Shown in pieces: positions 42,819-48,029 of a stretch of 64,000 nt of DNA. The stretch is from NCBI GenBank assembly GCA_038063535.1, contig JBBTUV010000003.1, forward strand, positions 83,179 to 147,178, written 5' to 3'. Position 1 is the first letter of the stretch, and every line of letters begins with the position of its first letter. Position numbers and translations under genes: made by a program. The DNA is from Patescibacteria group bacterium (GTDB lineage Bacteria > Patescibacteriota > Minisyncoccia > Phycocordibacterales > UBA9973). The notes below the pieces were generated by a model. That model saw only the letters and a program-made list of their open reading frames with translations, was not told the DNA's origin and did not search any database.

Positions 42819-43058
42819 ATGTTGACCGATTTCATACAAAAAAGGCTAAAAAGCGCTAAATATAAAATCTTGAAAGACAGAAGTTATTTCGGGGAAATTA
42901 CTGGGATGAGAGGGGTTTGGGCTAACGCAAGAACTCTCGAGGCATGCAGGAAAGAGCTTCAAGAAGTGCTTGAAGATTGGCTGGTTCTATCTATCAAGCG
43001 CGATAAGAATATTCCCGGCTTCAATTTCCCGAGTGCTCGAATTTTGAGAGATGCCTAG
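42819..43058 (+). CDS. hicB: HicB-like antitoxin (UPF0150 family)
   Basis: YFGEITGMRGVWANARTLEACRKELQEVLEDWL matches the HicB N-domain pattern (GE.P.L.GC.A.G.T.EEA....EA...W). Confidence 0.65.
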   Translation: MLTDFIQKRLKSAKYKILKDRSYFGEITGMRGVWANARTLEACRKELQEVLEDWLVLSIKRDKNIPGFNFPSARILRDA

Positions 43059-43263
43059 GGCAGTCTCAGCCAGGAAGCTTATCGAAAACCTCCGACTCTT
43101 TGGTTTTACCGGCCCGTATTCGGGAGGCAGGCACATGTTCATGATCAAAGGAAATTTGAAACTGCGAATCCCTAATCCCCACCACGGCGATATTTCTAAG
43201 AGCTTGCTTTCCGAGATCCTTCGTCAGGCCGGAATTTCCGCAAGCGAGTGGAATAAGTTATAA
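43051..43263 (+). CDS. hicA: HicA-like mRNA interferase toxin (YcfA family)
   Basis: KLIENLRLFGFTGPYSGGRHMFM...IPNPHHGDISKSLLSEILRQAGIS matches HicA (K.L...GW...R..GSH....HP......V.P.H.....GT...I.KQAG). Gene order is antitoxin-first. Confidence 0.65.
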   Translation: MPRAVSARKLIENLRLFGFTGPYSGGRHMFMIKGNLKLRIPNPHHGDISKSLLSEILRQAGISASEWNKL

Positions 43264-43276
43264 TAAAAGTTTTTTC

Positions 43277-43305
43277 TTGACTTTTTAACTCAAAAGGTGT
43301 ATAAT
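43277..43305 (+). promoter_or_regulatory. Near-consensus sigma70 promoter TTGACT-17 bp-TATAAT upstream of the DGR target gene
   Basis: Seen directly. A ~150-nt leader follows before the SD AAGGAGA and the ATG at 43456. Confidence 0.6.
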
Positions 43306-43455
43306 TGAAAGGTAAATAAGTTCTTTCAAGCTACTTGTTTACCTGCCTCTGGTGGGCAAAAAGTCGCCCTAGCTTTGAGCGCATAATTTTTTGTGCTTTC
43401 GGAGCTATGGCGACACCTCGGTCGCCTAGCGGACTCATATTTAAGGAGAACGGCA

Positions 43456-44097
43456 ATGTCTACCCAGAACATGCCGGAAGACGAAGTCGAACTTGCGACC
43501 GATGAACAACTCGGTCATATCCTCGACATGTGGCGCCGCCGGCTGAGGGGCCGCAAGCTCACCAACCCCGAGGCGCAGGCCATCATCACCAACGGCGGGT
43601 TCTATCTGCCGGTGATGGACGAGGCCGCTGATGTGCTCGTGGACCGCGTTCGTTCGGAAATCTCGAACACGATCGTTGTTTATCTGAACAACATCAAGCG
43701 CGGACAGACTGTTGAGCAGCTTCTCGATGCGACGGGGCGCAGGCAGTACACGGAGAAGTCTTCCGTCGCCACCATGCCACTCGTCGGCAACGGCGGCCCA
43801 CTCTCGGGTGAGTTCGTCTGGTTCAAGTCAGACGGTGGATTGTCTGACGCCGGAGTGGAGGAGGAGCGTGTCAGGCGCGGTCTCGTCCGCGATCTAGAGA
43901 TGCAGCTCCAGTACAACGCGGAGCACCCGGAGTTCGCCGATACGCACCCAAACGGCGATAGTTGGCCCGCAGACGACAAGGGCAACTACAATTTCGTCGG
44001 CCTCGGCCGGTGGGGCGGCGGGCGTGGGGTCGTTGTGGGCCGCGGCGGCGGCGGCGGGTGGGGTGCTGGCGACTGGTTCGGGGGCCGCCGCAAGTAG
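43456..44097 (+). CDS. DGR target (variable) protein, 213 aa, Gly-rich C-terminal variable region. ATG with AAGGAGA SD; ORF-track GTG at 43393 is probably an extension.
   Basis: The C-terminal 107 nt (VR) are a near-copy of the downstream TR, differing only at TR adenines. GC-rich relative to neighbours. No signal peptide. Confidence 0.85.
   Translation: MSTQNMPEDEVELATDEQLGHILDMWRRRLRGRKLTNPEAQAIITNGGFYLPVMDEAADVLVDRVRSEISNTIVVYLNNIKRGQTVEQLLDATGRRQYTEKSSVATMPLVGNGGPLSGEFVWFKSDGGLSDAGVEEERVRRGLVRDLEMQLQYNAEHPEFADTHPNGDSWPADDKGNYNFVGLGRWGGGRGVVVGRGGGGGWGAGDWFGGRRK
43987..44093 (+). repeat. DGR variable repeat (VR)
   Basis: 107 bp aligned to TR 44436-44542 without gaps. 25 mismatches, all at TR adenines (24 read G in VR, 1 reads T). 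The 3' 21 nt CTGGTTCGGGGGCCGCCGCAA are identical (IMH-like). Confidence 0.9.
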
Positions 44098-44164
44098 TAC
44101 TTAGGACTTAGTCACTGTGGTCTTTTTGACACTTTGACTTTTGTCCTGCATTGGATTTACCTAG

Positions 44165-44205
44165 GGCTCCGCCGTATACCACGTGCGGAGCCGCTTGTTT
44201 TTATA
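44165..44205 (+). terminator. Hairpin GGCTCCGC-(12 nt)-GCGGAGCC + TTGTTTTT downstream of the target gene (terminator; could double as a DGR homing-enhancing hairpin)
   Basis: Perfect 8-bp inverted repeat followed by a T-rich run, seen directly. Confidence 0.5.
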
Positions 44206-44435
44206 TATAATCAAATTGGTAGTAGGTGAATACGCGGGCGATCACGGTTTCCCGCTACCGAACCCAGTACCCATACATCGAGAGTGCTTGTGACCACGTG
44301 TTTCGGGCAGAGTGATGTATGCAGACACTTCAACAAAAAAAGAAGTTACTTGGTATGAAATGCTAGGGCATTGCGATGCCGAATACGATACAACCTCGAG
44401 AGTATTCGAAGGGTGGTGGCACAGAAGGCATTTCA

Positions 44436-44542
44436 TACAATTTCGTCAACCTCAACCAGTGGAACGACGAGCGTAAGGTCAATGTGAACCGCAGCAACGG
44501 CAACAGGTGGAATGCTAGCAACTGGTTCGGGGGCCGCCGCAA
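44436..44542 (+). repeat. DGR template repeat (TR), rich in AAC/AAT codons
   Basis: Invariant copy of the VR with A at every variable position. Its conceptual translation (ORF 44376-44564) is Asn-rich, as is typical of TRs. Confidence 0.9.
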
Positions 44543-44560
44543 CCCACTTCTTTCTCTCCT

Positions 44561-44962
44561 TTAACCGGGAGAGTTTTGTTTTGCAAGCTGTGCAGTTAGT
44601 TGTCCTTGCCATCCTCCGAGCATTTTGCCAACTTCTTCAATTTTCTCTGACAAAACAATATATTTTTTGTTGTCGAATGATTTAGTTTCCCACAATACCA
44701 TCAAAAGTATTTTTATCGTGTCAACTTTCCTCCTGGCCAAGCGAACCCAAGGCAGCTTCTCTTCTTTTGATAAAAAAGTGGCAATCGAAATTGCCTCAAT
44801 TATTTCTACAAACAAGCAATCAATTCTTTCCCCGAGCGAATATCGATGGATTTTTGCTAAAATGTTATGATAGCTATGCCAGAGAATATAGACACTTTTC
44901 AACTTGCCAAGAACCGGCAAAATCGAAGCGGGGGGGGGCTTTGTAGTCATAAATTTCATCAT
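44561..44962 (-). CDS. avd: Avd-like accessory variability determinant (four-helix-bundle / 23S rRNA IVS protein family), encoded on the strand opposite to TR and RT
   Basis: C-terminal ...LSEKIEEVGKMLGGWQGQL resembles Bordetella phage Avd ...IAEVGRILGSWIARV and TIGR02436-type four-helix-bundle proteins. Its reverse-strand coding was verified by hand translation. Confidence 0.65.
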   Translation of the reverse strand: MMKFMTTKPPPASILPVLGKLKSVYILWHSYHNILAKIHRYSLGERIDCLFVEIIEAISIATFLSKEEKLPWVRLARRKVDTIKILLMVLWETKSFDNKKYIVLSEKIEEVGKMLGGWQGQLTAQLAKQNSPG

Positions 44963-45934
44963 ATCATTTCTCTCGAAAACTTGCTGTTAGCGTGGCAAGA
45001 ATTTCTAGTCGGCAAAAAATCCCGGAAAGACGTGCAGGAATTCGAGAGGAATCTGATGGAGAACATAATTTCTTTACATCAAGATCTCGCCAACAAAACA
45101 TACAGGCATGGAAGTTATCACGCCTTCAACATCTCCGATCCCAAGCCCAGAAACATCCACAAAGCAAACGTTCGAGACAGATTGCTCCATCATGCCATCT
45201 ATCGAGTGCTGTACCCATATTTCGACCCAAAATTCATTACCGATTCATATTCTTGCAGGTTGAATAAAGGCACGCATAGGGCCATGAACAGATTCAGGGA
45301 ATTCGCATATAAAGTTTCGAAGAACAACATGCGAACCTGCTGGATTCTCAAATGCGACATCACGAAATTCTTCGCAAGCATCGATCATGATATGTTGAAG
45401 AAGATTTTAGCAAAACATATCGAGGACAGAGATATTCTTCGATTTTTAGGAGGGGTGATAGATAGTTTTCACACTCCCCAAGGTGTTTCCTTGGGGAAGG
45501 GGTTGCCACTTGGGAATTTAACTTCCCAACTCCTAGTGAATGTGTATATGAACGAGTTTGATCAATTTATGAAGCATAGGCTCAAGGTTAAATATTACGT
45601 CCGCTACGCAGACGACTTTGTGATATTAAGTGAAGGCAGAAACCAACTTATTACATTAAGGCGATATATCGCCATTTTCCTGAAAGAAGAATTGAAACTG
45701 GAACTGCCCCCTAACAAGATTTTTGTCAAAACATCAGCTTCCGGGATAGATTTCTTGGGCTGGGTGCATTTCCCGGAGCATAGAGTGCTGAGAACTACAA
45801 CAAAAAGGAGAATGCTAAAAAATTTAAAAGCAAATTATGAGAACGAAACCCTGCAATCTTATCTGGGGATGCTCTCGCACGGGAATACTCAACTTACTCA
45901 AAATGAAATTCGCCAGCTCGCTCACGCACTCTAG
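44867..45934 (+). CDS. DGR reverse transcriptase
   Basis: RT motifs: DPKPRNIHKA...DRLLHHAIYRVL (domains 1-2), LPLGNLTSQLL (DGR-specific [I/L]GxxxSQ), YVRYADDFVIL (YxDD box). 355 aa. Its 5' ~95 nt overlap avd antisense. Confidence 0.9.
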   Translation: MIAMPENIDTFQLAKNRQNRSGGGLCSHKFHHIISLENLLLAWQEFLVGKKSRKDVQEFERNLMENIISLHQDLANKTYRHGSYHAFNISDPKPRNIHKANVRDRLLHHAIYRVLYPYFDPKFITDSYSCRLNKGTHRAMNRFREFAYKVSKNNMRTCWILKCDITKFFASIDHDMLKKILAKHIEDRDILRFLGGVIDSFHTPQGVSLGKGLPLGNLTSQLLVNVYMNEFDQFMKHRLKVKYYVRYADDFVILSEGRNQLITLRRYIAIFLKEELKLELPPNKIFVKTSASGIDFLGWVHFPEHRVLRTTTKRRMLKNLKANYENETLQSYLGMLSHGNTQLTQNEIRQLAHAL

Positions 45935-48029
45935 ATTTAAGGAGCGGATATTTGAAGAGTTCCGGGTCTTCAGCGATGAGGCGGACCGCTTCGATGCGGG
46001 CCGCTTCTACCATTTTTAGATTTTTTATCGCTTCCATGCCGATGTCCGAGAGGCCCCACTGCTTCGCGCCCGAGAGTTCACCGGCACCGCGCAGTGCTAG
46101 ATCCAGCTCCGCAAGCTCAAACCCGTTCTTAGCGGTTTTAAGCGCTTTCAGGCGCTCCACCGTCTTCCCAGATTTCGCCTCCGCGAAGATGTAGCAGTAT
46201 GCCTGATGAGTGCTACGGAGCACCCGGCCGCGCAGCTGATGCAGTTGTGCCAAGCCGAAGCGCTCTGCGCCTTCGATGATGATGACGGTTGCGTTCGGCA
46301 CGTTCACGCCCACTTCGACCACGCTGGTCGCGCATAGGATATTTATTTTTCCTTTGGCGAAATCGTTCATCACGCCTTCTTTCTTCTCCTTGCTCATTTT
46401 CGAGTGAAGCACCCCCGTATCATATTCTGGAAAAATTTCTTTTTTCAAGCGTTTAGCCTCTTCCACTGCGCTCTTTACGTTAAGCGCCAGCTCTTTTTCC
46501 GGATCGGCCTCATAGATGCGGGGACAAATCACAAAAACCTGCCTTCCGACTTTTATCTCATCTCTCACCCGCTCATAGGTTCCACCTCTGTTATTGGGGG
46601 TAATGATTTCAGTAATTATCTCCTTTCTTCCCGGTGGCATTTCGTCCAAAAGCGATAGATCAAGGTCGCCGTAAATCGTAAGCGCAAGCGTGCGGGGGAT
46701 TGGCGTGGCGGTCATCGACAATAAGTGCGGCGCGACATTATCTTTCCGCACGAGCTTTCTCCTTTGCGCTGTGCCAAATCGGTGCTGCTCGTCGATCACG
46801 ACAAAAGCCAGATTTTTGAATTTCACGGTTTTTTGTATGAGCGCATGTGTGCCGATGAGTATCGGGATCTGTCCTTCGGCGACCCATTTCAAGAGCTGGC
46901 TTCGCGAAATAGGCGTCGCGTCTTTCGGATTTACTTTCGAGGGGAATTTCTTACACCCGCTTCCGGTGATAAGCCCCACTTGGATTCCGGTATGAAAAAA
47001 ATACTGAATGAAAGAATAGAAATGCTGTGTCGCCAAAATTTCCGTGGGCGCCATATACGCTACCTGAAGATTTTTTTTGACCACTTCGTTCGCAGCGGTG
47101 GCCGCGACCGCGGTTTTCCCACTCCCGACATCGCCTTCCAAGAGGCGTGACATCGGAAAGTCGTGCGACATGTCTTCTAAAATAGTTTGGATAGATTTCT
47201 TTTGCGCGCTGGTTGCTTCGAATGGAAAGCGTTTCAAGAATTCATCAACCCCTTTTTTATTTATCTTGATTTTGAAAGATTTGTTTTTCCTGTATTCGTG
47301 CTTGTCATGCTGGCGCTCGAGCTGGATGCAAAAAACCTCCTCGAAAGCGAATCTTTTCCGTGCGGCCTCGGCGTTCTTCGGATTTTTTGGCTTGTGAATC
47401 CAGATGAGTGCGGTTTTGAGAGACGGGAGGGAATATTTTTTCAGGATTTCTTCCGGGATATAATCAGAAATTTTGTAGAGAGTTTTATCTCGCAAAATTT
47501 TCTCTATTGCATGATAAAACCATTTACTCGTTATGCCGCGGGTTTCAGGGTAGACCGGGAAGGAGAGGCCAGTTGAGATTTTACCGTTTGCAAAAATACT
47601 CACATGCGAATCAATGGGCATATTGGGCATGCGCTCGAACTCCGGGTTGGCGAGATACGTGCCGCTCTTTCCGCCAGTAACTCTGCCTGTGAGCTTTACA
47701 CTTTCACCCTCGTGGAGCATCTTGGCAAGGTAGGCCTGGTTGTACCAGATGATTTTGATTTTGCCGGAGAGATCTTCGATGATTCCTTCGGCCATTGGCG
47801 TCTTACTCCGCCAAGCCTTTTTGGTTTTTAGTTTCGAAACCTTCCCGTATATAGTTGCCATCTCGCCGGGCACTAGTTCTTCGATTCTTTTGACCGTACT
47901 CACATCTGAATATCTCACTGGAAAGTGAAAAAGAAGATCGTGAACCGTAAAGAGTTTAAGCCGCCGGAGCGCCCTTTTTTGATTAACATCAATCCTGAAT
48001 TTTTCTTCTAATCTACAGGAGAGTTCCAT
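45894..48029 (-). CDS. recG: ATP-dependent DNA helicase RecG
   Basis: 711 aa. N-terminal wedge/OB. Helicase motifs GDVGSGKT, DEQHRFG, and C-terminal helicase domain. 3' end overlaps the RT gene 3' end by ~40 nt (convergent). Confidence 0.92.
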   Translation of the reverse strand: MELSCRLEEKFRIDVNQKRALRRLKLFTVHDLLFHFPVRYSDVSTVKRIEELVPGEMATIYGKVSKLKTKKAWRSKTPMAEGIIEDLSGKIKIIWYNQAYLAKMLHEGESVKLTGRVTGGKSGTYLANPEFERMPNMPIDSHVSIFANGKISTGLSFPVYPETRGITSKWFYHAIEKILRDKTLYKISDYIPEEILKKYSLPSLKTALIWIHKPKNPKNAEAARKRFAFEEVFCIQLERQHDKHEYRKNKSFKIKINKKGVDEFLKRFPFEATSAQKKSIQTILEDMSHDFPMSRLLEGDVGSGKTAVAATAANEVVKKNLQVAYMAPTEILATQHFYSFIQYFFHTGIQVGLITGSGCKKFPSKVNPKDATPISRSQLLKWVAEGQIPILIGTHALIQKTVKFKNLAFVVIDEQHRFGTAQRRKLVRKDNVAPHLLSMTATPIPRTLALTIYGDLDLSLLDEMPPGRKEIITEIITPNNRGGTYERVRDEIKVGRQVFVICPRIYEADPEKELALNVKSAVEEAKRLKKEIFPEYDTGVLHSKMSKEKKEGVMNDFAKGKINILCATSVVEVGVNVPNATVIIIEGAERFGLAQLHQLRGRVLRSTHQAYCYIFAEAKSGKTVERLKALKTAKNGFELAELDLALRGAGELSGAKQWGLSDIGMEAIKNLKMVEAARIEAVRLIAEDPELFKYPLLKSRVRERAGEFHFE

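Follow-up and report, generated by a model that had tools for sequence, protein, structure and literature searches.

A length-variable repeat at the avd/reverse transcriptase junction of a Patescibacteria diversity-generating retroelement as a candidate contingency switch

Architecture of the retroelement

The 64,000-nucleotide stretch of Patescibacteria group bacterium contig JBBTUV010000003.1 analysed here (the window, to which all positions refer) carries at 43393–45934 a complete diversity-generating retroelement (DGR) of the candidate phyla radiation (CPR)/Patescibacteria type, in which a target gene with its variable repeat (VR) is followed by a template repeat (TR), a reversed avd gene and a reverse transcriptase (RT) gene. 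Our subject is a run of nine G residues at the point where the 5′ ends of avd and the RT gene overlap on opposite strands, and the part that this run may play in the control of the element.

The target gene (43393–44097, plus strand) is listed as an open reading frame (ORF) of 234 aa, is called as a gene in assembly L081 and has a gene-caller start at 43456; its product ends in a Gly-rich variable region and has no match in Pfam or NCBIfam. The last 37 codons are covered by the 107-nt VR (43987–44093, plus strand), which aligns as a direct repeat with the 107-nt TR lying 449 nt downstream (44436–44542, plus strand). The two repeats differ at 25 positions, every one of which is an adenine in the TR (25 of 31 TR adenines altered), with a strongly skewed spectrum of 24 A>G and one A>T and a VR that is rich in Gly, Arg and Trp (…GLGRWGGGRGVVVGRGGGGGWGAGDW…). 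The final 21 nt at the 3′ end are the same in VR and TR and resemble an initiation of mutagenic homing (IMH) sequence; the window holds no other copy of them, and no further VR was found within its 64 kb. A 62-aa ORF across the TR (44376–44564, plus strand), annotated as a gene in both the ENA and the Logan assemblies, is the TR read in the frame of the VR and probably not a gene.

The RT gene (44876–45934, plus strand) encodes 352 aa, or 355 aa from an alternative ATG at 44867. The longer ORF (44867–45934) matches RVT_1 with an E-value of 9e-25 and has LGNLTSQ, the DGR signature, at residue 215 and YADD at 247 (numbering of the 355-aa ORF); the libraries of hidden Markov models (HMMs) used hold no DGR-specific RT model, and the top NCBIfam match is a related group II RT that falls under its cut-off. 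The adenine-confined differences between TR and VR, the DGR-type motif of the RT and the position of the VR at the 3′ end of the target gene with an IMH-like boundary together identify the element as a DGR.

Between the TR and the RT gene the minus strand carries avd (44561–44950, stop codon at 44561–44563), an assignment drawn from HMM matches, a structure model and the NCBI annotation MEK7569553.1, which places the start at ATG 44950 and gives a product of 129 aa; the longest ORF (44561–44962) has 133 aa. The matches of this ORF to NF033474 DivGenRetAVD (E 1.6e-13, 50.9 bits, curated cut-off 80) and to PF22296 bAvd (E 1.1e-8, 35.9 bits, cut-off 40) stay below both thresholds, and 120 of 120 homologues among the matches listed carry a precomputed Pfam annotation of PF22296. 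Sequence searches of solved structures gave no match, either with the single sequence or with a 38-sequence profile, and comparison of the fold was therefore needed. The AlphaFold model (45 homologues, pLDDT 89.7) is a four-helix bundle that superposes on the Bordetella-phage Avd structure 4DWL with best template modelling (TM) scores of 0.76/0.89 and a root mean square deviation of 1.6 Å, the 4DWL chains overall giving TM scores of 0.72–0.76 (query) and 0.84–0.89 (target) and deviations of 1.5–2.0 Å; the Avd chains in the DGR ribonucleoprotein 8UB7 are matched as well. Residues 1–11 (MTTKPPPASIL) form a low-confidence disordered tail outside the bundle, and the model suggests that this tail can tolerate arbitrary repeat-encoded residues.

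For comparison we collected 80 loci from genomes that represent their species and a further 80 of metagenomic origin, with RT identities of 57–74%. Synteny was scored in the 149 loci with at least 150 nt 5′ of the RT gene, and an Avd homologue that is divergent from the RT gene and directly adjacent to it is present in all 149. The inverted avd between TR and RT, which the initial annotation had regarded as a departure from characterized DGRs, is thus confirmed in its placement and in the fold of its product but is not unusual, since it corresponds to architecture B3, whose definition, TR-(avd)-RT, places avd on the opposite strand and which is reported for 90% of the CPR DGR set (PMC5758913). 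The window shows the B3 order of TR, reverse-strand avd and RT, with no other accessory gene. Distant IMG/VR DGRs, with RT identities of 33–38%, have a co-oriented avd.

The repeat at the avd/RT junction

The G9/C9 homopolymer occupies 44930–44938 and, just as had been read from the sequence at the outset, encodes GGG in the RT frame (codons 19–21 from ATG 44876) and PPP in the Avd frame (codons 5–7). It is the sole G/C run of at least 7 in the 64-kb window. A shuffling test inside the window was not significant for a G8 match (mean of 2.6 in the shuffles), and the case for the tract consequently rests on comparison with relatives. Among 151 homologous avd/RT junctions, which were aligned and scored for repeat status, 148 (~98%) have a simple-sequence repeat (SSR) at the same place, so that the synteny comparison recommended in the initial annotation bears out both the inverted adjacent avd and the junction repeat.

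In 140 of the 151 loci the repeat is a plain G6–G14 run with a mode of 9–10. Elsewhere it is replaced by (GA)10–12 in three loci, by (AG)8, (CT)7 or (CTGG)9 in one each and by C9G9 in two; the dinucleotide replacements, (GA)n or (CT)n, are those of L039, L060, L064, L067 and L108, the (CTGG)9 of L154 lies ~60–95 nt upstream of the RT motif, and the palindromic C9G9 is that of L048 and L150. The repeat units are of 1, 2 or 4 nt and none is a multiple of 3. Two loci, L119 and L120, have a degenerate GCGGCGGCGGGGG at the junction, and the repeat is lost in L095 and likewise in the IMG/VR relative L163. Across 868 kb of flanking sequence G/C runs of at least 8 occur only three times, and no repeat was found in IMG/VR outgroup DGRs, whether these have a co-oriented avd or are more distant with a divergent avd. 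The presence and position of the repeat are kept while its length, sequence and strand sense are not, a pattern which points to selection for mutability and not for a motif.

The longest avd and RT ORFs overlap by 96 nt, and by 75 nt with the best-supported starts (RT ATG 44876, Avd ATG 44950). The RT N-terminus encoded here is conserved as M-x-x-I-x-F-x-H-x-Y-x-x-I-I-S-x-E-N-L-L. In the window no ATG, GTG or TTG occurs from the tract to the conserved xHxYxxIIS.ENLL motif, and the only canonical in-frame starts of the RT are ATG 44876 and ATG 44867, which lie 5′ of the tract and are both antisense to Avd His codons. Gene callers differ at this point, NCBI placing the RT start at TTG 44981 (317 aa) and a Prodigal-type caller at GTG 45032 (300 aa); these starts escape the avd overlap only at the cost of the conserved N-terminal motif. 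In the protein collection there is no exact copy of either the 352-aa or the 355-aa product.

The His of the RT N-terminal motif (His28 in the window, 44948–44950) is encoded by CAT in all 103 loci surveyed for this codon and its antisense ATG, and never by CAC, compared with 58% CAT among the other His codons of the same RT ORFs (binomial p 5e-25, not phylogeny-corrected); an ATG on the opposite strand, the Avd start, is therefore preserved. From this ATG to the tract the frame is open in 103/103 loci, compared with 27 of 206 cases for the other two frames, and many called Avd homologues begin with M(N/K)(T/S)TPPPxxLP(V/L)L or with a longer version from the same ATG. We conclude that Avd translation begins at an ATG lying antisense within the first RT codons, that the 5′ overlap of avd and RT is general in the clade and that the repeat falls inside the Avd frame, past the start codon and ahead of the helix bundle. 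The invariant CAT is a clean example of synonymous-site selection imposed by an opposite-strand start codon. The antisense overlap described in the initial annotation is thus real (75–96 nt) and extends clade-wide, with the Avd start lying antisense to a conserved RT His. A TTG codon downstream of the tract (44918–44920, minus strand), which encodes the Leu of the Avd ILPVL motif, is a possible alternative, leaky start; TTG 44920 as a universal Avd start was rejected, the homologous codon being TTA or CTG in many loci, i.e. a conserved Leu.

On the RT side, the start-codon survey of 133 unique loci shows that the RT has a start of its own past the tract in 111 and lacks one in 22, the window among the latter. 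A motif-anchored analysis of the spacing between avd and RT places the RT ATG 4–20 nt past the tract in most relatives, with a modal distance of 13 nt (33 loci). Within this 13-nt class the tract is followed by a hexamer with T at position 1 (32/33), A at position 2 (26/33) and T at position 6 (31/33), then by 7 nt and the ATG, a geometry predicted to be that of a −10 box for a leaderless mRNA with the tract as promoter spacer. A TAnnnT hexamer ending 6–8 nt before the RT start is found in 37 of the 111 loci as against 6.5% at control ATGs. The distance from a conserved GGYAA motif to the post-tract element peaks at 17–18 nt, with r = −0.27 against tract length (p = 0.013, not phylogeny-corrected). 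Other subgroups present an AGG/GGAG-like motif instead, so no single RT-side role fits all loci. Poly-G as a general Shine-Dalgarno sequence of the RT was considered and rejected, as the ATG most often follows at 13 nt, past an intervening −10-like hexamer, and lies 50–60 nt away in L003-type loci.

Tract length, reading frame and the proposed switch

Seven groups of near-identical assemblies (2–6 kb aligned, 0–2 substitutions outside the VR) differ by one G in the tract, and in all but the pair L038/L132 this change is the only indel. One of these groups is that of the window strain, which is represented by the window, L081, the Logan assembly L082 and L083, the window being identical to a contig from Hainich groundwater well H41. 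The tract is G9 in the first three and G8 in L083, which was assembled from another filter fraction of well H41 and differs from the window by one further substitution in 2,028 nt; its coverage is 3x, and its G8 may be an error. From the G8 assembly a gene caller recovers only an 84-aa fragment of Avd.

When tract lengths are simulated in the window, only those with n = 0 mod 3 keep both ORFs full-length: G9 and G12 give an RT of 352–353 aa and an Avd of 129–130 aa, while G7, G8, G10 and G11 leave 22–38 aa of RT and 16–25 aa of Avd. The RT has no start of its own past the tract here and is read only through it; one tract is therefore predicted to gate both Avd and RT in the window genome, and the sequenced G9 is the predicted ON state for both. 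The suggestion of the initial annotation that the run is a slipped-strand site able to switch Avd and RT gains accordingly, with G9 and G12 alone keeping both frames open, an independent assembly of the same strain reading G8 and six other near-identical pairs differing by ±1.

Across the clade, the frame of the antisense ATG relative to the body of Avd is essentially random (in frame in 26 of the 103 genomes, +1 in 46 and +2 in 31). Among the 133 loci surveyed for Avd starts, 55 have an in-frame start upstream of the tract, 54 have one only just past it, mostly TTG, and the remaining 24 hold an intact Avd ORF without a canonical in-frame start, yet with an out-of-frame upstream ATG that is open to the tract. 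Each of the five same-strain pairs that differ by ±1 combines an in-frame with an out-of-frame member (chance probability ~0.13). In L132 the loss of one G from the tract is offset by the gain of one A at a distance of 19 nt, so that Avd is back in frame, and in L095 and L163, which have no repeat, the antisense ATG is in frame, as in locked-ON variants. L132 and L038, which are of one strain, also show 17 substitutions between them, grouped within a ~90-nt part of the VR (L038:3077–3168), with almost no other difference in 6 kb, and the DGR is therefore active in nature; these VR changes are mixed, so the extreme A>G skew of the window is not clade-wide. The concordance of ON phase between RT and Avd, seen in 16–17 of 21 loci in which, as in the window, the RT lacks a start past the tract, was rejected as independent evidence, being largely geometric since both ATGs are antisense to in-frame His codons.

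The reading that we favour, if with some reserve, is that the tract acts as a slipped-strand contingency switch on Avd, and here also on the RT, and thereby on DGR mutagenesis. Translation of Avd would start at the ATG inside the first RT codons and read through the C-tract to the helix bundle, and slipped-strand mispairing that gains or loses one unit would shift Avd into or out of frame. In the window the RT would be read only from ATG 44876 (or 44867) through the tract, so that both proteins are ON at G9 and both OFF at G8 or G10; in most relatives the frame set by the tract would govern Avd, and the length of the spacer may modulate the RT promoter. Since DGR cDNA synthesis depends on Avd, such a tract would be a stochastic and heritable on/off switch for targeted hypermutation. 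The start codons and promoters in use, slippage at the DNA level in vivo and the dependence of expression on frame are what we infer in this scheme. In its widest form, to which we would give even chances, the proposal is that a whole clade of Patescibacteria DGRs has a built-in switch, a hypermutable repeat between a hidden Avd start and the body of the protein, and hence a mutable switch on a mutator, with most populations OFF and rare ON cells diversifying.

Several observations weigh against a contingency switch. With the antisense ATG in frame in only 26/103 loci, most consensus genomes would be OFF, and in many loci the TTG just past the tract could start Avd regardless of tract length. 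An open codon-aligned antisense frame is partly expected from the codon content of the RT, and the statistics on the CAT codon and on spacing are not phylogeny-corrected. The ±1 differences between assemblies may partly be homopolymer consensus errors. The G residues lie on the RT-sense strand in ~95% of loci, which may reflect common descent or a sequence-specific role, and the promoter calls rely on matches to a consensus, in a phylum with uncharacterized promoters.

A random phase fits a contingency locus as well as it fits slippage at the RNA level or an Avd start past the tract. If RNA polymerase or the ribosome slipped on C9–C10, some transcripts would be in frame at any genomic length, and the tract would be a constitutive attenuator that sets a low level of Avd, and here of RT, with no heritable switch. 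Such decoding, which we hold to be unlikely, would account for the essentially random 26/46/31 distribution, as if genomic length were nearly neutral, and for the persistence of intact Avd and RT ORFs where the consensus genome is out of frame; runs of at least 9 are moreover in the range of known transcriptional slippage, for example at endosymbiont poly(A) tracts. However, random phase is equally predicted by a fast switch in DNA, the compensatory indel of L132 and the in-frame repeat-less loci suggest that frame in the genome is of consequence, and the replacement repeats with units of 2 or 4 nt are classic substrates of DNA slippage but poor ones for slippage by RNA polymerase.

A fixed cis-regulatory role, in which the tract is an RT promoter spacer or UP-like element, a Shine-Dalgarno mimic, a pause site or roadblock for RNA polymerase between the divergent units, or a binding site for a protein or for RT-Avd, with length variation as noise and Avd starting at the TTG/Leu codon, strikes us as rather improbable. 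The strand bias of ~95%, the abutment of the tract on a −10-like hexamer or its position 4–20 nt from the RT ATG in most loci, the total spacing peak of 17–18 nt and the 54/133 loci with a canonical start, mostly TTG, just past the tract all speak for a role of this kind. It is difficult to reconcile with replacement by (GA)n, by (CT)n, which has the opposite strand sense, or by (CTGG)9, or with a post-tract Leu that is TTA or CTG in many loci and the 24 loci that have no canonical start there, while the CAT codon in 103/103 loci speaks for an ATG 5′ of the tract, and in L003-type loci the tract still lies beside the Avd 5′ end although the RT ATG is 50–60 nt away.

A requirement at the protein level, for a poly-proline tail on Avd or a poly-glycine tail on the RT, would fit the TPPP N-terminal motif common to called homologues but is very improbable: the Pro codons are all CCC in genomes that are AT-rich to moderate in GC, which indicates selection on nucleotides, the prolines vary from 2 to at least 4, the frame is random and other repeats encode unrelated residues, and the tail is predicted to be disordered and outside the bundle, with the tract 5′ of the RT start in most loci. 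The initial annotation had allowed that the run could equally be a homopolymer sequencing error, and homopolymers are indeed error-prone and L083 has only 3x coverage, but artefact of sequencing or assembly (a homopolymer miscall or a poly-G artefact) is effectively excluded as an account of the existence of the tract and touches only individual ±1 differences, because the tract recurs at ~98% of the 151 junctions, drawn from many independent studies, lies mid-contig in ~150 loci from many projects and platforms, is G9 in three independent assemblies of the window strain and is the only indel across kilobases of otherwise identical sequence.

Flanking features, related systems and implications

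A hairpin, TTCTCTCC-loop-GGGAGAG (44552–44573, plus strand), begins 10 nt past the TR, straddles the avd stop codon and is followed by TTTTGTTTTG, the whole extending over 44552–44583. In this CTCTCC..GGGAGAG hairpin the 3′ arm and the T-run TTTTGTTTT are antisense to the conserved Avd C-terminal codons K-Q-N-S-P and are thus dual-coding. A homologous hairpin with T-run is present in 91 of 125 relatives compared with 5.6% at control positions, and the stems co-vary. From this conservation the TR RNA is probably a separate unit that ends at the hairpin or uses it as a functional element, and by analogy the hairpin could be a functional counterpart of the Bordetella spacer RNA. With a conserved terminator-like hairpin following the TR, read-through from TR to RT is not required; the transcript antisense to avd that the initial annotation envisaged on the basis of such read-through is accordingly less well supported, the more so as many relatives have a −10-like element of their own before the RT.

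Several further features flank these genes. A GC-rich hairpin GGGCTCCGC..GCGGAGCC with a T-run lies ~70 nt past the VR (44164–44200, plus strand) and is likely to be the terminator of the target gene. Just 5′ of the target gene are two small ORFs (42819–43263, plus strand), the second of which (43051–43263) is annotated with a HicA_toxin domain; these are likely to be a HicAB-type toxin–antitoxin pair adjoining the DGR. An Rfam scan of 43300–46000 gave as its sole result a DUF3800-V RNA at 43305–43392 (plus strand), also just 5′ of the target gene, with 22.5 bits against a gathering score of 37.4 and an E-value of 0.24; this sub-threshold match is probably due to chance. Adjoining it is a near-consensus promoter-like site, TTGACT-17-TATAAT, at 43277–43305. 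At the other end of the element the RT gene and the convergent recG gene (45894–48029, minus strand) share 41 nt at their 3′ ends (45894–45934).

Among known systems the closest are the B3 DGRs of CPR and DPANN organisms (Wu et al. 2018, PMC5758913), which share with the window the order of target-VR, TR, reverse avd and RT, a Patescibacteria host, an RT with the DGR signature and adenine-specific substitutions. In the B3 literature, Paul et al. 2017 not being covered, we found no mention of a repeat at the avd–RT junction, of an antisense start overlap or of a hairpin in the 3′ end of avd. The DGR of Bordetella phage BPP-1 (mtd-avd-TR-brt) has the same parts, the Avd fold (4DWL), the RT (I/L)GxxxSQ motif and an IMH-like identical 3′ end. 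Its avd, however, is co-oriented and upstream of the TR, its DGR RNA includes the TR-brt spacer and it has no known repeat tract, whereas the window presents an inverted avd, a terminator-like hairpin after the TR and a hypermutable tract that is predicted to gate both avd and RT.

SSR contingency loci are well known from pathogens. In Haemophilus influenzae a (TA)n repeat lies in the overlapping divergent promoters of hifA and hifB, the Neisseria porA and opc genes have poly-G/C promoter spacers, intragenic poly-G tracts are found in Campylobacter and Neisseria, and the Bordetella fim genes have poly-C tracts. With these loci the window shares a repeat placed in 5′ coding sequence or in a promoter spacer (a G/C run of at least 8, in some relatives one with units of 2 or 4 nt), a unit that is not a multiple of 3 and, as at hif, one tract for two divergent genes; the ±1-unit differences between otherwise identical assemblies would correspond to the polymorphism of such loci. 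It differs from them in that the tract would control a retroelement, that is a targeted mutator, and not a surface antigen or restriction-modification gene, in that the hosts are uncultured ultra-small Patescibacteria and not host-adapted pathogens, and in that both ORFs appear to be frame-gated via a codon-aligned antisense overlap. Rescue by transcriptional slippage at long homopolymers, as at endosymbiont poly(A) tracts and at the slippage sites of IS elements and dnaX, likewise involves a long homopolymer that often puts a conserved ORF in the wrong frame in the genome; those systems use A/T runs, in contrast to the G/C run of the window, the di- or tetranucleotide repeats of some relatives and the ±1 differences recorded at the DNA level between assemblies. 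Both the inverted avd and SSR phase variation are thus already known, and what appears to be new is the conserved junction repeat on a DGR. In the searchable literature we found no paper that connects a DGR with switching by a homopolymer or another repeat; this coverage does not extend to Paul et al. 2017 or to a bioRxiv preprint of 2026 naming DGR and poly-G, so that an earlier description is possible.

Little is known of how DGRs are regulated in nature, and mutagenic retrohoming without restraint presumably carries a cost. A repeat-based switch, if confirmed, would provide a simple and testable regulatory principle for CPR bacteria, the most DGR-rich group known, and would explain both the intact DGR genes that lack in-frame starts and the truncation of RT and Avd by automatic annotation at the junction. 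Metagenomes could then report DGR activity by correlating tract phase with VR diversity across samples. For the engineering of DGRs, the compact head-to-head avd/RT module, with its overlapping starts and a TR terminator inside avd, is a design of interest. More broadly, contingency loci would then occur not only in pathogens but also in ultra-small symbionts of groundwater, with a retroelement among the functions under their control, and such a switch on a mutator would amount to a case of second-order evolvability.

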